64,000 bases of DNA from Candidatus Dormibacteria bacterium. Its GTDB lineage: Bacteria > Chloroflexota > Dormibacteria > Aeolococcales > Aeolococcaceae. How positions within the stretch are numbered: the stretch's first letter is position 1; the number at the start of each line of letters is the position of its first letter. The notes below the pieces were generated by a model, which made no database searches, was not told where the DNA came from, and was given only the letters and a program-made list of their open reading frames with translations. The translations under genes and the position numbers were made by a program. The DNA is taken from the NCBI GenBank assembly GCA_044450385.1, contig JBIOIZ010000002.1:15393-79392 (forward strand), given 5' to 3'. Positions 37,233-48,514 of the stretch are shown here, piece by piece.

Positions 37233-39142
37233 CAGATATCGAGGTTGCGCACGCTCGTGGCGTGGGTCTGGATGAAACGCTTGCGAGGCTCGACGTCCGA
37301 GCCCATCAGGCGATCGAAGATGTCGTCCGCCTTGAGTGCGTCCGCAACACCGACCTGCAGCAGGACTCTGCGGTCGGGATCCATCGTCGTTGCCCAGAGC
37401 TCCTCGGACATCATCTCGCCGAGTCCCTTGTACCGGGACACTTCGGTATCGCGTCCCATGGACTTGACCTTGTCGTCACGCTGGTCATCGCTGAAGGCGT
37501 ACTCGGTCTGGCGGTTCTTACCCCTGCCCTTCTCGAGCTTGTACAGCGGCGGCTGCGCGAGATAGAGGAAGCCCCCGTCGACGAGCGGACGCAGGTGGCG
37601 CCAGAAGAACGTGAGCAGCAAGGTGCGGATATGGGATCCGTCGACGTCCGCGTCCGCCATGAGCACGATGCGGTGATAGCGGAGCTTGTCCACGCTGAAC
37701 GTCTCGCCGAAGCCTCCCCCGAGCGCCATGATCAGGTCCTTGATCTGCTCGTTGCCCAGAATCTTGTCGGCCCGCGCCTTCTCGACGTTGAGGATCTTGC
37801 CGCGAAGCGGAAGGATTGCCTGGTTGCGGCGTTCGCGCGCCTCCTTGGCTGTGCCGCCTGCCGACAGACCCTCGACGATGAAGATCTCGCAGTGCGCCGG
37901 GTCGCGCTCGCTGCAGTCAACCAGCTTTCCCGGCAGCGTCGCCGACTCGAGCAGTGACTTGCGCTGTACCAGGTCGCGAGCCTTCGCGGCGGCCTGGCGT
38001 GCACGCGCAGCCGTCAGCGACTGATCGATGATCCTGCGCCCGTCGGCCGGGTTCTCCTCGAGGTACTGCATGAGTGCCTCGCTCAGCACCGTCGAGACCT
38101 GACCCGCCACTTCGCTGTTTCCCAGCTTGGTCTTGGTCTGACCCTCGAACTGCGGCTCACGCAACTTGACGCTGATCACGGCTGTCAACCCGTCGCGCAC
38201 GTCGTCGCCACTGAGGTTGGGGTCCTGCTCCTTGAGGATCGCAGCCTTGCGCGCGTACTTGTTGAGCGTTGCGGTCAGTGCGCTGCGGAACCCGGTGACA
38301 TGCGCGCCACCCTCCTCGGTGTGCACGTTGTTGGCAAACGCGAGAACGTGCTCGGTGAAGACCGTGTTCTGATACTGAAGCGCGATCTCGACGACGTTGC
38401 CGTCGATCTCCCGTTCCACGTACATCGGCTTCTGGTTGATGACGTTGCGGTTCGCGTTGAGATACCTGACGAAGGACTGAATGCCGCCCTCGAAATGGAA
38501 GGTGTATTCCTGTTCGTCGCGCTCATCCGCGAGCTGAATCGTGATGCCCTTGTTGAGAAAGGCATAGCTGCGCAGCGACGTGGACACCGTCTCCCACGAG
38601 AACTCGATCTCCTGGAATATCTCCGGGTCGGGCCAGAAGCGCACGAAGGTCCCGCGGCGGTCGGTCGTGCCGATGACCGTCACAGGTCCGTCGGGCACTC
38701 CTCGCGTGTACTCCTGGTGATGCGTCTCGCCGTCGCCGTACACCTCGACCACCAGACGCTCACTGAGCGCGTTGACGACCGAGAGACCGACTCCGTGCAG
38801 TCCACCCGAGACCTTGTAGCCCCCGCCACCGAACTTTCCACCAGCATGGAGCGTGGTGAGCACCACCTCGAGTGCGGACTTCCTGGCGGTCGGATGCATG
38901 CCCACGGGGATGCCGCGGCCATTGTCCAGCACGGACACCGACTTGTCCGCATGGAGGACGATCTTGATGGTGTCGCACCAGCCGGCGAGCGCCTCGTCGA
39001 TGCTGTTGTCGACGAGCTCGACGACGAGATGGTGCAGACCCCGAAGATCTGTGGAGCCGATGTACATCCCGGGCCGTCGGCGAACCGGCTCGAGGCCCTC
39101 CAGGATCTGAATCTGATCGGCCGAGTACGCGTCCTTGCCCAC
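37232..39142 (-). CDS. gyrB: DNA gyrase subunit B
   Basis: GLHHLVVELVDNSIDEA, HAGGKFGGGGYKVSGGLHGVG, Toprim EIFIVEGLSAGG. Confidence 0.93.
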   Translation of the reverse strand: MGKDAYSADQIQILEGLEPVRRRPGMYIGSTDLRGLHHLVVELVDNSIDEALAGWCDTIKIVLHADKSVSVLDNGRGIPVGMHPTARKSALEVVLTTLHAGGKFGGGGYKVSGGLHGVGLSVVNALSERLVVEVYGDGETHHQEYTRGVPDGPVTVIGTTDRRGTFVRFWPDPEIFQEIEFSWETVSTSLRSYAFLNKGITIQLADERDEQEYTFHFEGGIQSFVRYLNANRNVINQKPMYVEREIDGNVVEIALQYQNTVFTEHVLAFANNVHTEEGGAHVTGFRSALTATLNKYARKAAILKEQDPNLSGDDVRDGLTAVISVKLREPQFEGQTKTKLGNSEVAGQVSTVLSEALMQYLEENPADGRRIIDQSLTAARARQAAAKARDLVQRKSLLESATLPGKLVDCSERDPAHCEIFIVEGLSAGGTAKEARERRNQAILPLRGKILNVEKARADKILGNEQIKDLIMALGGGFGETFSVDKLRYHRIVLMADADVDGSHIRTLLLTFFWRHLRPLVDGGFLYLAQPPLYKLEKGRGKNRQTEYAFSDDQRDDKVKSMGRDTEVSRYKGLGEMMSEELWATTMDPDRRVLLQVGVADALKADDIFDRLMGSDVEPRKRFIQTHATSVRNLDI

Positions 39143-39445
39143 CCGCCCGGCGCCTTCCGGACGCGGGTCCGGACTGCCGTCTGAATGGGTCGTTGCGGGT
39201 CTCGTCTCTGTCTCGATCGCTGCCTCATCGGGGCGTTCGGGGCGTGCGGTGTCGGTTATTTGTGCTGCTCCGGTTGTGACGTGAGTGATGGAGAGTGGGC
39301 CAGGGGTGAAACCGCTCGATTGTTCCAGCGGGGACCGCTCAAATCGGCCGTTCCACGTACCCCTATTCTACCAGCCGGACGGCCCACTTGGCTCTTTTCG
39401 AGTGGTTCGCTGCACTAGCATCAAGGGCGTGAAGGACACCGTCCG

Positions 39446-42196
39446 TTGTGCGCCGGTCCGGCCTGGTCGAGGGCGTCGATAAAGGTGGCCACATCCACTC
39501 TTGAAGAGTACCGCCGCAAGCGCGATTTCAATCAGACCCCGGAGCCCAGCGGCGACCCGATCCCGCAGTCCGGTACAGAGACTTCGGCGTGGGAGCACCT
39601 GCCCCATGGAAAGCGCTTCTGTGTCCAGAAACACCGGGCTACACGAATGCATTTCGATTTTCGCCTGGAGCACGACGGCGTGCTGCTCTCGTGGGCGATT
39701 CCGAGGGGTCCAAGCCTCGATCCGGCCAGGAAGCGCCTGGCAGTGCAGACCGAGGACCATCCGATCGACTATGGCGAATTCGAGGGCGTCATCCCCTCAG
39801 GGTACGGCGCCGGCACGGTCATGCTCTGGGACATCGGGACGTACGAGTGGATCAAGGAAACCGCCGAGGATTTCGAGCGTTCGCTGCAGAGAGGAGATCT
39901 CAAGTTCCGCCTCGATGGCACCAAGCTCTCGGGCGAGTTCGCACTGGTTCGCATCGGTGACCGTGGACGCCAGTACGGCGGCAGCAACGACGGAAACAAG
40001 AACTGGCTGTTGATCAAGAAGCGCGATGCCTCCGTGGTCGAGGGATACGAGGCAGGCGACTACGACGTTTCAGTCAAAACCGGCAGAAGCCTGGCTCAGA
40101 TCGCTCAGGACGGAGGTGGTGATCCTCGCGAGATGCGCCGTGCCGCTCGTGTCCGTGGTGCTGCCGCAGCGGCGCAGCCCACAGTGTCCTCCCCGCTGCT
40201 CGCTCAGGCGCCCCCGCCGATGCTCGCCACGCCGGTCGAGCAGCCGTTTTCGCGGGACGGATGGCTGTTCGAGCTGAAATACGACGGCATTCGCGCCATG
40301 GTGAGCGTCGCCGGTGACCTGATACGCATCACCGGCCGGCGCGGCGGCGATGAGACGGCGCGCTACCCGGAGGCAGCGGCGATTCGTGCTGGAATCCGGG
40401 CCGGGCAGGCGATCGTCGACGGCGAGCTTGTCGTGCTCGACGCCGAGGGCCGTCCATCGTTCGAGCGGATCCAGCAGCGAATCGGCGTCAGCCGCGAGCC
40501 CGATGTCCGCCGAGTCGCGGGCGAACACCCCGTGACGTTCATAGCGTTCGACCTGCTCGAGGTGGACGGCCGCGACCTGCTCAACACCGAGCTGCGCATT
40601 CGCAAGAAGACTCTTCGCGAGACCATCGTCGACTCGCCACACATCTTGTTCGCTGAACACGTCGAGCGCGATGGCATATCGCTCTTCGAGGTGGCTCGCT
40701 CGTCGGGCATCGAGGGCATCGTCGGCAAGCGCGCCGATTCCCTGTACCGGCCAGGAATCCGCAGCCCCGACTGGGTGAAGATCAAGTCCTGGCTCAGCCA
40801 GTCGTGCGTCATCGTGGGCTATACCGCCGGACGCGGACGCCGTTCAAACCAGCTGGGCGCACTCATCCTGGCGGTGCTCGACGGAGGGCGTCTCGTCCAT
40901 TGCGGACAGGTCGGCACCGGCTTCGATGACAAGACCCTAAACGACCTGAAGGACCGGCTCCGACCCCTCGAGGTGAAGACCTGCCCACTCGACGTCACGC
41001 CGAAGACGGCAGAACCGGCGACCTGGGTCAAACCCGAGCTCGTCTGCGAAGTCCGCTTCGCCGGATGGACCCGCGACGGCATCCTCCGCCACCCCGCCTT
41101 TCGCACCCTCCGTCTCGACCAGAGACCCGAAGACTGCTACCGGGAAGTCTTCCTGAAGACCGCGCCGGCCCAAACGCCACGGCCTCCAAGGGAGCGGCCT
41201 GCGGCCACCCCCCGCGCGAGGCGCAGAGCAGAGAGCGTGCAGACGCCCGCTCATGACTCGCGACAGAACCCGGAGGACTTGCAAGCACTGGCGCAGCTGA
41301 GAACGCTGACAGGCAATGCGCATTGGGAAATCGCAGGTCGCAGACTTCCACTCACGAATCTCGATAAGGTGCTCTGGCCGGCGGACGGCATCACGAAACG
41401 GGACATGATCGAGCACTACGTCCGGATGGCACCGTACATGCTGCCCTACCTGCGCGACCGCCCGTTATCGATGCAGGTATTCCCCGACGGTATTGACGGA
41501 AAGTCCTTCTGGCGCAAGGACAAACCCACGCATGCTCCGGCTTGGATCGAGGCGTGGACGTATCACGGTGAGAAGACCAAGACGTACATAGTGGTCAACG
41601 AGGTTGCCACGCTCGCGTGGGTTGCCAACGCCGGTGTCATCGATCTGCATCCGTGGCACTCGCGCATCGATGCTCCGGAGCAGCCGGACTGGGCGGTATT
41701 CGACCTGGATCCATTCGAACCGGCAACGTTCCAGGATGTCATCGATATCGCCAAGCTCGTCAAGGCGGCGCTGGATCATTACGGCATGCATGGCGTGGTC
41801 AAGACGAGCGGCCAGACCGGGTTGCAGATCTACGTGCCCATTCGCCGTGGCCCCGACTACTCGGCGGTGCGCCACTGGGTGGAGGAGGTGGGCAGAGCGA
41901 TCGATCAGGCGGCGCCCGGTCGCGTGAGCTGGGAGTGGTCGGTTGCGAAGCGGACGGGCCGGATCCGGATCGACTACACGCAGAACATCATCAACAAGAC
42001 CCTTGCGGCGCCTTACTCACTCCGCCCTGCGCCCGGAGCTCCGGTATCGACACCGATCACATGGGCAGAGCTCGACGACCCGGAGCTCAGACCTGATCGA
42101 TGGAACATCGCAACCATCGCGAAGCGCGTCGCGGAGAAGGGGGACCTCTTCGCGCCGGTCCTGCAGGCGGACCAGGACCTTCCGCGCCATTCGTAG
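39446..42196 (+). CDS. ligD: Multidomain ATP-dependent DNA ligase D (phosphoesterase-ligase-polymerase order)
   Basis: PE domain QKHRATRMHFDFRLEHDGVLLSWAIPRGPS; ligase motif I ELKYDGIR and motif IV EGIVGK; C-terminal primase-polymerase domain with AVFDLDP. The start is uncertain (TTG 39446 or GTG 39485). Confidence 0.9.
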   Translation: MCAGPAWSRASIKVATSTLEEYRRKRDFNQTPEPSGDPIPQSGTETSAWEHLPHGKRFCVQKHRATRMHFDFRLEHDGVLLSWAIPRGPSLDPARKRLAVQTEDHPIDYGEFEGVIPSGYGAGTVMLWDIGTYEWIKETAEDFERSLQRGDLKFRLDGTKLSGEFALVRIGDRGRQYGGSNDGNKNWLLIKKRDASVVEGYEAGDYDVSVKTGRSLAQIAQDGGGDPREMRRAARVRGAAAAAQPTVSSPLLAQAPPPMLATPVEQPFSRDGWLFELKYDGIRAMVSVAGDLIRITGRRGGDETARYPEAAAIRAGIRAGQAIVDGELVVLDAEGRPSFERIQQRIGVSREPDVRRVAGEHPVTFIAFDLLEVDGRDLLNTELRIRKKTLRETIVDSPHILFAEHVERDGISLFEVARSSGIEGIVGKRADSLYRPGIRSPDWVKIKSWLSQSCVIVGYTAGRGRRSNQLGALILAVLDGGRLVHCGQVGTGFDDKTLNDLKDRLRPLEVKTCPLDVTPKTAEPATWVKPELVCEVRFAGWTRDGILRHPAFRTLRLDQRPEDCYREVFLKTAPAQTPRPPRERPAATPRARRRAESVQTPAHDSRQNPEDLQALAQLRTLTGNAHWEIAGRRLPLTNLDKVLWPADGITKRDMIEHYVRMAPYMLPYLRDRPLSMQVFPDGIDGKSFWRKDKPTHAPAWIEAWTYHGEKTKTYIVVNEVATLAWVANAGVIDLHPWHSRIDAPEQPDWAVFDLDPFEPATFQDVIDIAKLVKAALDHYGMHGVVKTSGQTGLQIYVPIRRGPDYSAVRHWVEEVGRAIDQAAPGRVSWEWSVAKRTGRIRIDYTQNIINKTLAAPYSLRPAPGAPVSTPITWAELDDPELRPDRWNIATIAKRVAEKGDLFAPVLQADQDLPRHS

Positions 42197-42230
42197 CGTG
42201 GAGCGCGGATTGCGGGTACCCTGCGACGCG

Positions 42231-42863
42231 ATGCGACGGGTGTTCCTTCCGGCTGTGCTCGTGGCGGCCGCGACCGCGATCGGGTGCGGATCGGCGTCCC
42301 CAACGGTCACGAGCACGGAGCCGACGCCCTTCAGCGTAACCCCGACGCCGGTTCAGAGCCAGACGCCCCTGGCGACACCCACCGCCATCCCGACCGCCAC
42401 CCCGACGGTGACAGCAACTGGGCCGTGCATGCCGGGCCAGTTCCAGATCGCCATCCTGAACACCCAGGGCGCCGCGGGCACCATCTACGCGACGTTCGAG
42501 GTTCGCAACGCTTCGACCGCCGACTGCTCCGAGAACGGCTACGCCAAGCTGCAGCTGCTCACCTCCGGGGGCGGTCTGCTGAACACGAGCTGGTCGAACG
42601 ACAACTCAATGGCCAGTCCGAGCCCGGTCGACCTGCCTGCGGGCACCCAACCGCTGGGAGCCACCGGCGCGACGGGACACGGCTATTTCCTGGTCTCGTG
42701 GACCGATGCGACCTGCTCCGCGGCCCAGGCAGAGATGCCGAAGTTCTGGCGGGTCATCCTGCCGACATCGCGGTTCCAGACGAATGTGGCCGATATCGAT
42801 TCGAGCATGGTGTGCGCGGGTGCGATCAAGGTCGGCCCGATCAAGTCAGCTCCCTACGTCTGA
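42231..42863 (+). CDS. DUF4232-type secreted lipoprotein
   Basis: Trimmed to ATG 42231. Lipobox AIGCGS, Thr/Pro linker, then CMPGQFQIAILNTQGAAGTIYATFEVRNASTADCSENGY, typical of DUF4232. Confidence 0.7.
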   Translation: MRRVFLPAVLVAAATAIGCGSASPTVTSTEPTPFSVTPTPVQSQTPLATPTAIPTATPTVTATGPCMPGQFQIAILNTQGAAGTIYATFEVRNASTADCSENGYAKLQLLTSGGGLLNTSWSNDNSMASPSPVDLPAGTQPLGATGATGHGYFLVSWTDATCSAAQAEMPKFWRVILPTSRFQTNVADIDSSMVCAGAIKVGPIKSAPYV

Positions 42864-42902
42864 CCGACGCCAGGATGCTCGCTTCCCAATAGAATTCGGG
42901 CC

Positions 42903-43424
42903 ATGGCAGTGCTGCTGCTCAACGCCTCGATGCAACCGCTCAACGTGATCAGTCACCGCCGGCTGGTGGTGCTCCTGACCAAGGAGCGAGTCGCGTTCGT
43001 GGATGAGGCGGCTGAACGAGCTGCTGCAGAGGCACTCGCGGGGCGCAGGTTGCCAGAAGGCGTCGTCATCGTGCGCCTGCTCCGGACCATCCACGTACCG
43101 CGCCGGTTGCTTCGACCCAACCGCCGCAATCTTCTGCTCCGCGACGATCATACGTGCCAGTACTGCGGGCGCCTCGGTACCGCCGCCGAGCTCACCGTCG
43201 ACCACGTGATCCCGGTCTCTCGAGGGGGCGCTCCGGATCGCTGGGACAACGTAGTGATCGCATGCAGGAAGTGCAACTGGCGAAAGGCGAATCACCGTCC
43301 CGAAGAGGTCGGACTCGTTCTCCGGCGCAGGCCCGTACCGCTGACGCAGGAATACGCGCACATCATCTTTCTGCGCTACCCGGAGCTCAAGGCCGCCTAC
43401 GACAGGATGCTCGCCGCGGCCTGA
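42903..43424 (+). CDS. HNH endonuclease
   Basis: CQYCG...LTVDHVIPVSRGG...NVVIACRKCNWRKANH (HNH/zinc-finger core). Confidence 0.85.
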   Translation: MAVLLLNASMQPLNVISHRRLVVLLTKERVAFVDEAAERAAAEALAGRRLPEGVVIVRLLRTIHVPRRLLRPNRRNLLLRDDHTCQYCGRLGTAAELTVDHVIPVSRGGAPDRWDNVVIACRKCNWRKANHRPEEVGLVLRRRPVPLTQEYAHIIFLRYPELKAAYDRMLAAA

Positions 43425-43486
43425 ATCGCGCCTCGCGCGTCAGACCCTCGTCCAAGCCGATCCCGCGCCTCTATACTCGAGGAGCC

Positions 43487-44347
43487 ATGCCTCGATCCAT
43501 GTGGCGCGGCGCCATCAGCTTCGGCATGGTGGCGATCCCCGTGCGGCTGTACCTGGCGACCGAATCGAAGAGCGTTTCGTTCCGGCTGCTGTGTCCAACT
43601 GATCACACGCCCGTCCGCAACAAGCGCTGGTGCCCGGAGGAGGATCGCGAGATCGGCTGGAGCGAAGCGGTTCGCGGGTATGAGGTGGGCAAGGACGAGT
43701 ACGTGGTCATCACGGACCAGGATCTCGACGACCTGCCGCTGACCACGACGCACACCATCGACATCGTCGAGTTCTGCCCGGATTCCGAGATCGAGGCGGG
43801 CGTCTACCTCAAGAGCGCCTATTACCTGGAACCCGAGGCCGTCGGCGTCAAGCCCTACGCGTTGCTCCGGGAGGCACTCGAGAAGACCGGCACCGTCGCC
43901 ATCGGCAAGATCGCACTCCGTGATCGCGAGCACCTCTGCCGCCTGGCACTGCATGAGCAGGGGCTGCTGCTCAACACGCTGCACTGGCCGGACGAGATCC
44001 GCTCCGCGGCCGAGCTGGCGATTCCCGAGCAGGCTCCTGACGTCGCCAAGAAGGAGCTGGACATGGCGGTGATGCTCGTCGAGAACATGAGCGCCCACTT
44101 CGACCCGGCGCGCTATCACGACAACTACCGCGAGGCGCTGATCCAGGTTGTCGAGGCAAAGCTGGCCAACACGCCGATCGAGCGCCCGCAGGTGCAGGAA
44201 CCCGGCAAGGTCACCGACCTCATGGCTGCGCTCAAGGCCTCGGTCGAGGCGGCGAAAACGCGGCGGTCTGAAGGCGGCGCAGCAGAGGAATCCGAGGCCG
44301 ACGACGCCGAGTCTCTGGAACCGGCCCGCCGGAGCCGGGCGTCCTGA
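43487..44347 (+). CDS. ku: Ku protein (NHEJ DNA-end binding)
   Basis: Trimmed to ATG 43487 after GAGGAG. MWRGAISFGMVAIPVRLY start and Ku core; basic/acidic C-terminal tail. Confidence 0.9.
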   Translation: MPRSMWRGAISFGMVAIPVRLYLATESKSVSFRLLCPTDHTPVRNKRWCPEEDREIGWSEAVRGYEVGKDEYVVITDQDLDDLPLTTTHTIDIVEFCPDSEIEAGVYLKSAYYLEPEAVGVKPYALLREALEKTGTVAIGKIALRDREHLCRLALHEQGLLLNTLHWPDEIRSAAELAIPEQAPDVAKKELDMAVMLVENMSAHFDPARYHDNYREALIQVVEAKLANTPIERPQVQEPGKVTDLMAALKASVEAAKTRRSEGGAAEESEADDAESLEPARRSRAS

Positions 44348-44364
44348 GGCTTCACGGGTCACGC

Positions 44365-45474
44365 GTGGCTGGGAGAGCAAGCCTGTCTCGTGCCGCCCCG
44401 GAGTCCCAGAGCGAACCTTTGCCCTTTCGATCACCGGTGCCGCCTCAGCTCCCGGGCTACATCCCGTTTGAGATATCAGTCCCCTGCGCGGAGGCGTTCG
44501 ATGACCCCGACTGGCTGTTCAGCGTCGACTGGGACGGGGCACGCGCGCTGCTCTTCATCGACTCGGGCGGCTCCGTGCGCATCCAGGGCGAACTGGCTCG
44601 TGATCTCGCGCGGCGCTTCCCTGATATCTCGACCGCCGTGGCCATCCCGAACGGCCGGGGCGCTGTCCTCGACGGTGTCATCGCCGTGCTCGACCGGGAA
44701 GGCCGTCCAGACCTGACCGGCTTCGGCCGTCGCCTCGCCGCCGGGCCGGCCGCAGCCGCTGAGCTTCCAGCGGTGTACCTCTGCTGTGACGTCCTGCACC
44801 TCGACGGGCGCGCGACGGTGGGTTGGGCCCTGGATCGTCGCCTCGATGCTCTCAGCGACCTGACCCGCCGCAACGATGTCCTCCAGGCGCCGGACCACGT
44901 GCGCGGACGAGGAGTCGCGCTCGCCGCCGCGGCGGCTGGACGGGGCCTGCCGGCGTTGCTCGCCCGGCGGGCCGCGGCTCGCTATCGGCCAGGCGTCGCC
45001 TCCCCTGATCGTCTGCGCATCGGGCTCTCGGATCAGACGACTTGCGTCATCGCGGGCGTGGTTTCGCGCCGGGCTGGCACGAGGCTCATTCTCGGAGAGC
45101 ATGTCGACGGTCGCCTGACCTTCGCGGGACACGTCGACGGGCCGCGTGATCCGCTCGTCGCCGCGTGGCTTGCGCGGCACATCGCCGACCTGAGGGTCAA
45201 CACCGCGCCACTCGAAGGGGTGCAACCCGTCAACGCGACCTGGCTGCGACCTGCGCTCACGGCGACCGTCCGGCACCACGGCCGCAGCGCTGCCGGAGCA
45301 CTCCTGCGACCGGCGCTCCTGGCGGTGCGCGACGACGTCGATCCATGCTGGTGCGTGCAACGACCCGCGGTCGCCGGGCCGGTCGAGCTGCACGCGGGGA
45401 CCCGCTTCTCGCCGACACTGCTGATGCCGCTTCCTCTGGGCGACCTTTCAGGGACACCCCAGGCGACTCGATGA
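44365..45474 (+). CDS. ATP-dependent DNA ligase-like protein with substituted catalytic lysines (predicted inactive)
   Basis: Colinear with the LigD ligase domain in this window, but motif I KYDG is DWDG, motif IV EGIVGK is PALLAR, and motif V KIK is RIG. Intact frame with strong GC3 bias. ATGA overlap with the next gene. Confidence 0.7.
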   Translation: MAGRASLSRAAPESQSEPLPFRSPVPPQLPGYIPFEISVPCAEAFDDPDWLFSVDWDGARALLFIDSGGSVRIQGELARDLARRFPDISTAVAIPNGRGAVLDGVIAVLDREGRPDLTGFGRRLAAGPAAAAELPAVYLCCDVLHLDGRATVGWALDRRLDALSDLTRRNDVLQAPDHVRGRGVALAAAAAGRGLPALLARRAAARYRPGVASPDRLRIGLSDQTTCVIAGVVSRRAGTRLILGEHVDGRLTFAGHVDGPRDPLVAAWLARHIADLRVNTAPLEGVQPVNATWLRPALTATVRHHGRSAAGALLRPALLAVRDDVDPCWCVQRPAVAGPVELHAGTRFSPTLLMPLPLGDLSGTPQATR

Positions 45475-46304
45475 CCACGTCGGTCCTGATGTGCCGGCCC
45501 GATCACTTCGGGATCGAGTACGAGATCAACCCGTGGATGCACGTTGCGGTCGAGGTTGACCACGCGCGGGCGACGTCGCAGTGGGATGCGCTGTACCGGA
45601 CGTACCTCGACCTCGGGGTGGTCGTGGAATTGGCGACACCCGTCGCGGGTCTGCCTGACATGGTCTTCACGGCCAATGCGGCAGTGCTCTGGGATGACCG
45701 TGCCGTGCTGAGCAACTTCCATCATGCCGAGCGGCAGGGTGAGGAGAAGCACTGGCGCGAGGAGCTCGAGCGCCTCGGCTTCGATGTTCACGAACTGCCG
45801 CGATCGCTTTCGTTCGAGGGCGCCGGGGACGCCCTCTTCGTCGGTGATCGCCTGTTCTGCGGTTACGGGTTCCGGACCGACCGCGAGGCACACCATCCGG
45901 TGGCGCGCATCCTCGAGGTCGAGGTCGTCTCACTCCAGCTGGTCGACCCGCGCTTCTATCACCTGGACACCTGCTTCTGCCCGCTCGACGCCACCAATGT
46001 CCTCGCGGCGCCCGCCGCGTTCGCCCCGGAGTCGATGCGGTTGATTCGCGAGCTGGTGCCGAATCTGATCGAGGTGCCCGTCGAGGTGGCGGCCGGGTTT
46101 GCGTGCAACGCGATGCCGCTCGGGCAGCAGGTGCTCTCTTCGCTGACGATCTCGCAGATGGAGGCTCCGCTCCGGGCGGCCGGATACACCCCGATTCCGC
46201 TCCCCATGGGGGAGTTCCTCAAAGCCGGTGGTGGGGTCCGCTGCCTCTCACTGCCACTCGGCGAGCGAGGTCGCGGCCGCACCCGGGATGCCGCACAAGG
46301 CTGA
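45471..46304 (+). CDS. Amidinotransferase/DDAH-fold (guanidino-group-modifying) enzyme
   Basis: LMCRPDHFGIEYEINPWM N-terminus and C-terminal GGGVRCLSLPL (catalytic Cys context), recalled from the family. Confidence 0.7.
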   Translation: MTTSVLMCRPDHFGIEYEINPWMHVAVEVDHARATSQWDALYRTYLDLGVVVELATPVAGLPDMVFTANAAVLWDDRAVLSNFHHAERQGEEKHWREELERLGFDVHELPRSLSFEGAGDALFVGDRLFCGYGFRTDREAHHPVARILEVEVVSLQLVDPRFYHLDTCFCPLDATNVLAAPAAFAPESMRLIRELVPNLIEVPVEVAAGFACNAMPLGQQVLSSLTISQMEAPLRAAGYTPIPLPMGEFLKAGGGVRCLSLPLGERGRGRTRDAAQG

Positions 46305-46360
46305 GGGTAGATCCAACAACCTCTGAGCGTTTTCCCAGACTTCCGCGCGAAGATGGTCCG

Positions 46361-47086
46361 GTGACCACACCAACCCCTGGAGAGCCGAACCGAGTTCTCG
46401 TCGTTGACGATGAGCATGCCATCACCGATCTTGTGGCGATGGCCCTCAAGTACGAGGGTTTCTCGGTGCAGACCGCCGGCACCGCAAAGCAGGCCCGTCA
46501 CGCGGTGATGGACTTCCGCCCGGACCTGATGATCCTGGACGTCGGACTGCCGGACGACGACGGCTTCACGCTCGTGCAGCGTCTGATCACCGACGGCATC
46601 AAGGTCCCGGTGATCTTCCTCACCGCCCGGGACGCCACCGAGGAAAAGGTCCACGGGCTGACCATCGGTGGCGACGACTACGTGACCAAGCCCTTCAGCA
46701 TCGAGGAGCTGGTCGCGCGGATCCGTGTCGTGCTCCGTCGCCACAATCCAGACGGCGCGGCGGCGAACGGCAAGCTCGTCCTCCACGACCTGGAGCTGGA
46801 TGACGAGACGCATGAGGTCTTCCGCGCCGGGGAGCCGGTGGAATTGACGCGCACCGAGTTCCGACTGCTGCGCTATTTGATGATGAACACGGGCCGCGTG
46901 CTGTCGCGCTCGCAGATCCTCGATCACGTCTGGGACTACGACTTCGGTGGCGACGCCAGCGTGCTCGAGACGTACATCAGCTACCTCCGCCGCAAGGTCG
47001 ACAACGTCGACCCGCCGCTCATTCACACGGTCCGCGGGATCGGCTACGTCATTCGCGTACCGCGCACCGCATCGGCGCATGCGTAA
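46361..47086 (+). CDS. OmpR-family response regulator
   Basis: GTG 46361. Receiver VLVVDDE...MILDVGLPDDDG...KP, and winged-helix LTRTEFRLLRYL...GIGYV. Confidence 0.9.
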   Translation: MTTPTPGEPNRVLVVDDEHAITDLVAMALKYEGFSVQTAGTAKQARHAVMDFRPDLMILDVGLPDDDGFTLVQRLITDGIKVPVIFLTARDATEEKVHGLTIGGDDYVTKPFSIEELVARIRVVLRRHNPDGAAANGKLVLHDLELDDETHEVFRAGEPVELTRTEFRLLRYLMMNTGRVLSRSQILDHVWDYDFGGDASVLETYISYLRRKVDNVDPPLIHTVRGIGYVIRVPRTASAHA

Positions 47087-47116
47087 GCGGCGCGGGCGAT
47101 GTTCTCAGGACGATAG

Positions 47117-48514
47117 ATGTCTCTCCGACTCCGGCTGCTGCTGACCCTGGCGCCGCTGTTCATCCTCGGACTCGCGGCCGCCGACGCCGGGACGTACGTG
47201 GCGTTGCAGAGTTCGCTGCTTCAGAACGTCGACAATCAGCTGGTCGCACTCCACGACGGTGCGGAGAACGCCCTCGGGCACTCGGGGCCACCTGGGCAGT
47301 TCGACAACGGCGGAGGCAGCGGCCAACTACCCCCAGGCACATATGGCGAGCTCGTCAGCGCATCCGGGGCTCTGAGCGGCGGCGGCCTGTACGGCGGCTA
47401 CGTCCAGCCAACGCCATCGCATCCTGTGTTGCCCGCAACGATCTACAAAGACGCGAGCACGACGCTGCTGACGGTTCCCGGAGTCGGAACGTGGGATTCG
47501 TACCGAGTCCTCGTCACCCCGGACTCGACTCAGCCCGGCACTGATGTGGTGGTCGCGATCCCGCTCGACGGCGTCAACACCACCCTGGGCACGCTCCTGC
47601 TCTTCGAGATCGCCATCAGCGGCGGCATCACGATTGTCGTCCTGGTCGTCACGTGGTTGCTGGTTCGTCGAGGGATGCGTCCGCTCGAACGCATGGGTGC
47701 CACCGCGCGGTCGATCGCCGCAGGCAACCTCGGTCGTCGGGTATCGCCGTCCAATGAGCGCACTGAAGTCGGCCAGCTCGGCCTCGCCCTGAACGGAATG
47801 TTGAGCCAGATCGAGCGAGCGTTCGCCGAGCGCGACGTCACCGAGCAGAAGTTGCGCCACTTCGTCTCCGATGCCTCACACGAGTTGCGCACGCCGCTCA
47901 CGTCGATGCGCGGCTACGCGGAGCTGCTGCAACGAAACCCGGACATGACCCGTGACGATGTCCTGCTCGCGGTCCGTCGCATCGAGGACGAGACCCGGCG
48001 CATGGGGCTGCTGGTCGACGACCTGCTCCTGCTCGCGAGACTGGACCAGGGACGTCCCCTGGACCGGGCACCGGTCGATCTCACCTCGATGGTCAACGAC
48101 GCCGTGAGTGACGCCCGCGCCGCCGACCCGGGGCGCTCTGTCAGCGCCCGGATCGAGGCGCCGATCGTGGTCACCGGCGACGACCTGCGCCTTCGCCAGG
48201 CTGTGGCCAACCTCGTCCGAAACGCGCTGGTGCACACGCCCGCAGGGAGTCCGGTGGAAGTTGCTCTGCATCCGGAGAACGAGCACGTTGAGATCGATGT
48301 CATCGACCACGGTCCGGGGGTGCCAACCGCGCAGCGCGAGCGGATCTTCGAGCGATTTCATCGTGCGGATCCGCTGCGCAGTCGCGACCAGGGCGGCAGC
48401 GGGCTGGGCCTGAGCATTGCGACGGCGGTCGTCACCGCGCATGGCGGAAGGATCAGCGTCACCGACACACCCGGCGGGGGCGCCACCTTCCGGATCGAGC
48501 TTCCGGCGGCGTGA
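47117..48514 (+). CDS. Sensor histidine kinase (HAMP-HisKA-HATPase)
   Basis: H-box FVSDASHELRTPLTS, N/G boxes including GGSGLGLSIA, and two TM segments with a periplasmic loop. Confidence 0.9.
   Translation: MSLRLRLLLTLAPLFILGLAAADAGTYVALQSSLLQNVDNQLVALHDGAENALGHSGPPGQFDNGGGSGQLPPGTYGELVSASGALSGGGLYGGYVQPTPSHPVLPATIYKDASTTLLTVPGVGTWDSYRVLVTPDSTQPGTDVVVAIPLDGVNTTLGTLLLFEIAISGGITIVVLVVTWLLVRRGMRPLERMGATARSIAAGNLGRRVSPSNERTEVGQLGLALNGMLSQIERAFAERDVTEQKLRHFVSDASHELRTPLTSMRGYAELLQRNPDMTRDDVLLAVRRIEDETRRMGLLVDDLLLLARLDQGRPLDRAPVDLTSMVNDAVSDARAADPGRSVSARIEAPIVVTGDDLRLRQAVANLVRNALVHTPAGSPVEVALHPENEHVEIDVIDHGPGVPTAQRERIFERFHRADPLRSRDQGGSGLGLSIATAVVTAHGGRISVTDTPGGGATFRIELPAA

Follow-up and report, generated by a model that had tools for sequence, protein, structure and literature searches.

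A lysine-free paralog of the LigD ligase domain encoded directly behind ku in Dormibacterota, a probable non-catalytic component of the end-joining locus

In bacteria, non-homologous end joining (NHEJ) has usually been portrayed as a minimal two-protein machine made up of Ku and LigD. A stretch of 64,000 nucleotides from a Candidatus Dormibacteria bacterium (GenBank assembly GCA_044450385.1, contig JBIOIZ010000002.1, positions 15,393 to 79,392 of the forward strand), which we analyzed at its full length and call the window, raises the question of what a third protein might be doing at such a locus: directly behind ku lies an intact gene whose product resembles the ligase domain of LigD and contains no lysine. 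We refer to this gene and its product as pLig, for pseudo-ligase. Our results indicate that pLig is probably a catalytically dead paralog of the LigD ligase domain that selection has kept, in a non-catalytic capacity, as part of the Dormibacterota end-joining locus of Ku and LigD. Three genes are central to this question, with positions counted from the first letter of the window:

44365 to 45474, + strand: pLig, GTG start, 369 aa; stand-alone LigD ligase-domain paralog with no lysine
43487 to 44347, + strand: ku, 286 aa from the ATG at 43487; TIGR02772 score 291.5 bits against a cut-off of 150
39446 to 42196, + strand: ligD; its product has the three canonical domains (phosphoesterase, ligase, polymerase) and retains every catalytic residue of the ligase

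A sequence-only reading of the window had described pLig as an open reading frame of 369 aa located 17 bp past ku, translationally coupled to the next gene and strongly biased in GC content at third codon positions (GC3). The coordinates bear this out: the ku stop codon, TGA, occupies 44345-44347 and pLig starts 17 nt after it, and the gene that follows, which is DDAH/arginine-dihydrolase-like, begins with the ATG at 45471 and so shares an ATGA with the pLig stop codon (TGA, 45472-45474). The GC3 bias is also real (0.77) but not distinctive, as it is ordinary for the window, where the neighbors of pLig range from 0.78 to 0.86. Database names for the gene differ, NCBI listing a 'hypothetical protein' of 345 aa and IMG a 'bifunctional NHEJ protein LigD'. 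Because codons 1-39 are constrained, with a ratio of nonsynonymous to synonymous substitution rates (dN/dS) of 0.18, we favor the long GTG start over that of the 345-aa NCBI annotation.

The homology of pLig to ligases was examined at the levels of sequence and predicted structure. BLASTP gave an alignment of 324 residues between pLig and the LigD of the same window, with 31% identity (E 3e-35), and recovered all four of the aligned blocks on which the proposed colinearity with the LigD ligase domain had been based. The NCBIfam model TIGR02779 (NHEJ ligase domain, an equivalog-domain model) matched pLig end to end with an E-value of 1.9e-32, at a score of 112.7 bits, which is half of the cut-off of 227.75; the LigD of the window scored 301.2. 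Both Pfam ligase domains were found just under their gathering thresholds, PF01068 (DNA_ligase_A_M) at 24.4 bits against 26.2 and PF04679 (DNA_ligase_A_C) at 25.5 bits against 27.5, and homology is clear from BLASTP, HMMER and TIGR02779. The nearest solved structure by sequence was the ligase domain of Mycobacterium tuberculosis LigD (1VS0/6NHX; HMMER, E ~1e-17).

An AlphaFold2 model of pLig, built from an alignment of 26 sequences, had a predicted template modeling score (pTM) of 0.78 and a predicted local distance difference test score (pLDDT) of 80-96 over residues 45-335, while residues 1-39 and 340-369 had a pLDDT below 50 and are predicted to be disordered. In a Foldseek comparison of the model with the PDB, the M. 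tuberculosis LigD ligase domain 6NHX was again the top match (E 1.6e-23, TM 0.70), and the other leading matches were archaeal and human ATP-dependent ligases (top hits at E 1e-23 to 1e-14). Given the E-values for TIGR02779 and 6NHX, the similarity of pLig to ligases is far beyond chance. As modeled, pLig keeps the nucleotidyltransferase-plus-OB fold of the ATP-dependent ligase/covalent nucleotidyltransferase superfamily. The domains and tails are arranged as follows:

44365 to 44481, + strand: N-terminal Pro-rich extension, aa 1-39, with the motif PLP[FL]RxPxPPxLPG, conserved down to 45% identity
44482 to 45030, + strand: nucleotidyltransferase-like domain, aa 40-222 (PF01068; pLDDT mostly 80-94; Foldseek match 6NHX)
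45031 to 45369, + strand: OB-fold-like domain, aa 223-335 (PF04679 and the model)
45370 to 45471, + strand: C-terminal tail, aa 336-369, predicted disordered
45406 to 45438, + strand: near-invariant linear motif of the C-terminal tail, F348-x-P-T-[LV]-L-x-x-L-P-L

In the C-terminal motif, F348 is present in 72 of 73 orthologs, and P350, T351, L356 and P357 are present in all 73. Two cysteines, Cys41 (44485-44487), just before the nucleotidyltransferase domain, and Cys330 (45352-45354), part of a conserved DPxWC motif immediately behind the OB domain, are likewise invariant in these orthologs; a disulfide or metal site that locks a closed conformation is possible.

We then compared the pLig family with 102 canonical ligase domains in a profile alignment of the best 150 hits from a search of 1.84 billion proteins. 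In the HMMER alignment, Asp55 of pLig stands opposite the adenylylation lysine of M. tuberculosis LigD, K481. The canonical residues and their replacements in pLig, with the coordinates of the motif remnants, are:

44521 to 44544, + strand: motif I remnant SVDWDGAR; Asp55 (Asp or Glu in the family) takes the place of the nucleophilic Lys, and Ser that of the canonical Glu two residues before it, with Gly58 and Arg60 retained
motif Ia: canonical Arg replaced by Glu
44665 to 44694, + strand: motif III remnant VLDGVIAVLD; the ribose-contacting Glu is replaced by Val105, with Asp-Gly retained
motif IIIa: the canonical adenine-stacking Phe gives way to a variable residue (Thr, Phe, Ser, Ile or Cys)
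44950 to 44967, + strand: motif IV remnant PALLAR; canonical Glu-Gly...Lys is replaced by Pro-Ala...Arg, the Arg being Arg201
YxPGxR: canonical Arg replaced by Ala
45010 to 45024, + strand: motif V remnant RLRIG; canonical Trp-x-Lys-x-Lys is replaced by Arg-x-Arg-x-Gly/Ala/Pro (Trp by Arg216, the first Lys by Arg218, the second by Gly, Ala or Pro)
45328 to 45336, + strand: motif VI remnant RDD, with Arg322 and Asp324 invariant; the Lys found in about half of canonical domains (Val, Ile or Leu in the others) is replaced by Val

By comparison, the motif I-VI key positions of the LigD of the window read KDGRDGEDEGKKKRDQ. Among 73 sequences of the pLig family, the motif I position is occupied by Asp in 60 and Glu in 13, and never by Lys. 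Arg60, Arg201, Arg216, Arg322 and Asp324 are invariant (73/73), Arg218 is found in 68/73, as is His145, and His304 is conserved at more than 90% in a 25-sequence alignment. About 40 structural positions are retained as well, including F45, W56, G58, R60, D103, G104, D142, R159, Y207, G210, R322 and D324. The loss of the motif I lysine to Asp, of the motif IV lysine to Arg in a PALLAR context and of both motif V lysines (RIG), as proposed in the sequence-only reading, thus stands, and the extent of the loss had been understated, since motifs Ia, III and IIIa, the Glu-Gly of motif IV, the Trp of motif V and the Lys of motif VI are also changed.

The pLig of the window contains 42 Arg and no Lys, compared with a Lys content of 3.4% in the LigD ligase domain and 4.5% in Ku. 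Lysine is absent from 38 of the 73 orthologs, numbers at most three in any of them and is shared by at most 7 of the 73 at any one alignment column, so that no other lysine is available to take the motif I position. We initially considered the lysine-free composition as a special signal but dropped it, as the neighboring DDAH-like protein (0.7% Lys) and a histidine kinase (0.4%), which are not DNA-binding proteins, are likewise poor in Lys. A low Lys content is thus partly characteristic of this genome, although the difference from the LigD ligase domain and from Ku holds. Because it has no Lys, pLig is predicted to be unable to form the lysyl-AMP intermediate, as had been claimed, and neither self-adenylylation nor sealing of nicks or ends is expected of it. 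It probably cannot hold adenosine either, as the Glu two residues before the motif I Lys, the motif III Glu and the motif IIIa Phe are gone. The pattern of replacement indicates a pocket that is remodeled rather than eroded: phosphate-contacting lysines have become Arg201 and Arg218, the Trp has become an invariant Arg216, and position 55 is invariably Asp or Glu. Since pLig falls below the curated thresholds and fails every catalytic criterion, it should be filed neither as LigD nor as a DNA ligase.

Is such a protein maintained, or is it decaying? A word-index search found 144 relatives of pLig at 45-100% identity, and those labeled by organism were all Dormibacteria/Dormiibacterota, except one labeled Saccharimonadales. 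A scan of one genome per GTDB species yielded 80 loci, essentially all in metagenome-assembled genomes (MAGs) of Dormibacterota plus a few with other automatic labels. At 72 of them a single in-frame match covered at least 85% of pLig, at 43-90% identity; four were truncated at contig ends and four were frameshifted (L036, L051, L058 and L074), all of the latter in long-read Microflora Danica MAGs. In L036 and L051, frameshifts are also present in LigD, HNH or kinase genes, in L058 the entire ligD-HNH-ku-pLig block is duplicated in inverted orientation, probably an assembly artifact, and L074 has a single frameshift, in pLig only. Conservation reaches at least 95% at 65 positions among the orthologs, replacement residues included.

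Selection was measured as dN/dS by the Nei-Gojobori method in close genome pairs only (Ku dS below 0.5); distant pairs, which gave ~0.4 for all genes with synonymous sites saturated, were left out. The values for close pairs were:

pLig: 0.136
LigD ligase domain: 0.124
Ku: 0.110
DDAH-like protein: 0.095
LigD polymerase domain: 0.068
HNH: 0.039

Pooled regional values within pLig were 0.18 for the N-terminal tail, 0.15 for the nucleotidyltransferase domain, 0.20 for the OB domain and 0.23 for the C-terminal tail, and the C-terminal motif (aa 346-358) was the lowest region of the protein at 0.09. These results agree with the earlier view that pLig is retained rather than decaying: the gene is under constraint similar to that on Ku and on LigD's ligase domain, and the same substitutions recur throughout its orthologs. 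With motif I Asp or Glu in all 73 sequences and Arg60, Arg201, Arg216, Arg322 and Asp324 invariant, the catalytic substitutions are old and themselves constrained. Judged by its residues, pLig is a pseudoenzyme, with the fold kept, the catalytic residues lost and purifying selection acting on what remains.

The linkage of pLig to ku is equally regular. At all 74 loci with at least 1 kb of upstream DNA, ku lies directly 5' of pLig on the same strand, with a median gap of ~21 nt across loci, which confirms the Ku linkage noted in the window. LigD is encoded no more than 10 kb upstream at 49 of the 62 loci with enough sequence. Downstream, the gene that overlaps the pLig stop codon in the window is also a frequent neighbor:

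45471 to 46304, + strand: gene for a DDAH/arginine-dihydrolase-like protein of amidinotransferase-type fold, starting within the ATGA that also holds the pLig stop

This gene was found within 250 bp downstream of pLig at 60 of 77 loci, and anywhere downstream at 71 of 77. In a deep clade at ~45% identity to the pLig of the window, the trio of Ku, pLig and DDAH-like genes is present, with no LigD or HNH within 10 kb upstream (L055, L056, L061, L064, L065, L067, L069, L070, L072 and L077-L080). In a consensus scan of 39000-47200, terminator-like sites were not found, and the only promoter-like match lay on the minus strand, leaving none on the coding strand.

Ligase paralogs of this kind may not be confined to the pLig family. 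A profile search identified distant stand-alone ligase-domain proteins of 330-400 aa whose motif I position holds Ala, Ser, Leu, Arg or Asn instead of Lys. They come from MAGs named Chloroflexi/Chloroflexota where labeled, and mostly from unlabeled metagenome contigs. Most of them still have the motif III Glu and the motif IV Lys, P0214 being an exception. Their neighborhoods are as follows:

P0268 and P0285: motif I Ala; directly after ku, in two unrelated neighborhoods (P0160/P0268 and P0166/P0285)
P0214: motif I Ser, without Lys anywhere in the protein; a full ligD begins 5 bp after its end
P0149: motif I Leu; convergent with a full ligD
P0161, P0295 and P0223: motif I Arg, Ala and Leu, respectively; no end-joining neighbor within the available DNA

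At the locus level, motif I Ala or Ser proteins are encoded directly after ku or before a full ligD at L081 (7087-9049), L086 (5072-6990) and L089 (1585-5476). In a rough neighbor-joining tree, which is only indicative, the Asp/Glu pLig family was monophyletic, and the other proteins lacking the motif I Lys formed small basal clades mixed with a few Lys-bearing stand-alone ligases. These distant relatives resemble pLig in being stand-alone, in the replacement of the motif I Lys and, for several, in adjoining ku or ligD; they differ in falling outside the Asp/Glu clade and in having no DDAH-like neighbor. Lys-less ligase paralogs at end-joining loci seem to extend beyond the Dormibacterota family.

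How might a dead ligase domain contribute to end joining? pLig is likely to be co-expressed with Ku, given the 17-nt gap and the lack of an intervening promoter-like or terminator-like site, and its product would act at DNA ends as an accessory or regulatory subunit of Ku/LigD end joining, with the LigD encoded 2 kb upstream performing the chemistry. Docking to Ku and/or LigD, or to the DDAH-like protein, would probably involve both of the conserved tails that are predicted to be disordered, with the C-terminal motif FxPT[LV]LxxLPL as the leading candidate. The C-terminus of M. tuberculosis Ku binds the LigD ligase domain (bioRxiv 10.64898/2025.12.12.693941), and the surface bound by this arm might serve pLig as an alternative or additional docking site; the Ku of the window carries a conserved C-terminal helix, VTDLMAALKASVEA. 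The Arg-lined pocket may hold a phosphate group, e.g. that of a 5'-phosphate DNA end. Both kinds of contact, to DNA and to Ku, are inferred.

Several observations weigh against this role. The motif Ia Arg, which contacts nicked DNA in canonical ligases, is Glu in pLig, and this makes the canonical nick-binding mode doubtful. Residue D522 of M. tuberculosis LigD, on which the binding of Ku critically depends, falls opposite Gly97 of pLig, a variable position, so that the Ku-arm interface is not simply transferable from the M. tuberculosis protein; K579 and L580 of the latter align to Asp161 and Ala162 of pLig, in a helix that shares R159 and L163 with canonical ligases. As the DDAH-like gene is nearly as consistently linked to pLig and is translationally coupled to it, Ku is not the sole candidate partner. 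Furthermore, some of the Lys-less relatives have no end-joining neighbor in the available DNA, and the evidence base consists of MAGs of uncultured lineages.

A fuller picture, which we regard as possible but less likely than not, is that Dormibacterota end joining has at least three components, in which the dead ligase would bind Ku by its C-terminal motif and recognize the DNA-end phosphate with its Arg-lined former AMP pocket, serving synapsis, end protection or ligase loading, as XRCC4, XLF, PAXX or the body of ligase IV do among eukaryotes; this arrangement might also hold in other soil lineages.

Among the alternatives, the one that fares best, though we consider it unlikely, is that pLig is a negative regulator or decoy that competes with LigD for the C-terminal arms of Ku or for DNA ends, keeping ends protected and unligated and, for example, limiting error-prone joining to dormancy or desiccation. 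The architecture of pLig and its linkage to Ku fit this explanation equally, as does the helix with R159 and L163, which is kept in the region aligned to the Ku-contact residues K579/L580, and a dead paralog that binds the same partner is a common origin of dominant-negative regulators. However, pLig is part of the same apparent operon as Ku and LigD and has no separate promoter-like site on the coding strand, which would be odd for an antagonist, and the Ku-pLig pair is kept at 13 of the 62 loci in which no LigD lies within 10 kb.

We also considered that pLig might serve the DDAH-like enzyme, as a non-catalytic subunit or adaptor, or have a function outside end joining, in which case its adjacency to ku would be a residue of tandem duplication. 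The ATGA overlap and the proximity of the DDAH-like gene at 60 of 77 loci, including those of the clade without a nearby LigD, are in keeping with such a partnership. Yet the ku adjacency is without exception (74/74), whereas six loci have no downstream DDAH-like gene and others have inserted genes, and the independent Lys-less lineages that adjoin ku or ligD have no DDAH-like gene there. We therefore judge this explanation to be improbable.

That pLig has remained an enzyme, working through some non-Lys nucleophile or through non-covalent chemistry in its Arg-lined pocket, is more improbable by far. The set of Asp/Glu55, Arg60, Arg201, Arg216, Arg322 and Asp324, kept throughout, with Arg218 nearly so, is more than a scaffold strictly needs, and His145 and His304 could be candidate catalytic residues. 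These histidines are not invariant, however, and the adenosine-binding residues are gone together with the metal-binding motif IV Glu; no characterized member of the covalent nucleotidyltransferase superfamily is known to do without the motif I lysine. Finally, the possibility that pLig is a decaying pseudogene of the LigD ligase domain, as its sub-threshold Pfam and NCBIfam scores and its 'hypothetical protein' label at NCBI might suggest, is refuted by intact frames in 72 species-level loci spanning 43-90% identity, a dN/dS of 0.14-0.18, the highly conserved positions with replacement residues among them, and the confinement of the few frameshifts to error-prone long-read assemblies.

We compared pLig, as a probable non-catalytic end-joining component, with known systems. 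By sequence and structure, the LigD ligase domain (TIGR02779; 1VS0/6NHX/6NHZ) is the closest, being colinear over ~290 residues, with the same nucleotidyltransferase plus OB arrangement and a Ku locus. pLig differs from it in standing alone, with no fusion to polymerase or phosphoesterase domains, in its added, conserved and disordered N- and C-terminal tails, and in the replacement of every catalytic and adenylate-contacting residue. LigC, a stand-alone ATP-dependent ligase of Actinobacteria (NF006078), is similar to pLig in its nucleotidyltransferase-plus-OB architecture, its size of ~350 aa and its repair context, but the match of the NF006078 model to pLig is weak, at 53 bits where the cut-off is 296 (E 1.9e-14), and pLig is without the chemistry of LigC. 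LigC is described as an active ligase, complete in its motifs, that pairs with PrimC rather than Ku (PMC8068969).

In eukaryotes, non-catalytic NHEJ scaffolds are familiar, as XRCC4, XLF and PAXX bind Ku via short terminal motifs. What they have in common with pLig is conceptual, an accessory factor that lacks catalysis and bears conserved, disordered motifs at its termini, with contact between the pLig tails and Ku being hypothetical; their fold is unrelated to that of pLig and there is no sequence similarity. A functional analogy is provided by DNA ligase IV: yeast Dnl4 without catalytic activity retains a structural role in support of end joining (PMC3694833). Like the role proposed for pLig, this is a ligase fold acting without ligation in Ku-dependent joining; dead Dnl4, however, represents engineered point mutants of the one active ligase of eukaryotes in this pathway, while pLig is a natural dead paralog beside an active LigD. 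The sequence-only reading knew of no described Ku-associated dead ligase, and in our full-text searches and in the main comparative NHEJ survey we likewise found no natural dead paralog of LigD or another ligase linked to Ku. That survey classifies by domain presence, counting any LIG domain, and catalytic lysines go unmentioned.

If the proposed role is correct, pLig, as a dead ligase paralog selected across a phylum and encoded immediately after ku, would become the first accessory factor of this kind known from nature, and would surprise specialists who hold bacterial NHEJ to be a two-protein system. The non-catalytic role of engineered dead ligase IV in yeast would then have a parallel in nature. 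Given the IMG name and surveys that count LIG domains without checking catalytic residues, the repair capacity of uncultured soil and permafrost bacteria may be over-called, especially in the clade with only Ku and pLig at the locus. For the question of how a nucleotidyltransferase pocket takes on a new use, the invariant replacement residues and the tail motifs are clear targets for mutation.

The remaining genes of the cluster were also examined. The DDAH-like protein retains a C-terminal GGGVRC, a type of motif that we take to hold the catalytic Cys of its superfamily. A putative guanidino-modifying enzyme accompanies Ku and the Arg-rich, Lys-free pLig at most loci of Dormibacterota, also where no LigD is encoded nearby. 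Between ligD and ku lies a further gene:

42903 to 43424, + strand: HNH endonuclease gene, 173 aa (Pfam HNH, E 2.3e-14)

The HNH protein is 94-98% identical across species in which pLig is 65-80% identical (95-98% in the near clade and 69-90% in deeper clades), and at a dN/dS of 0.04 it is the most conserved of the cluster; it may be a dedicated end-processing nuclease of the end-joining operon. Among the PADLOC-DB defense models there was no match for pLig, Ku or the DDAH-like protein, and HNH gave weak PtuB-like or generic HNH matches. A small predicted lipoprotein-like open reading frame (MRRVFLPAVLVAAATAIGCGS...) is located at ~42230-42863 on the + strand, within the open reading frame 41943-42863, between ligD and the HNH gene; judging by LigD-HNH spacing, it seems to be missing from some related loci. 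The DDAH-like gene is followed on the + strand by genes for an OmpR-type response regulator (46373-47083) and a histidine kinase (47117-48514), a pair that is syntenic in the closer Dormibacterota loci only.

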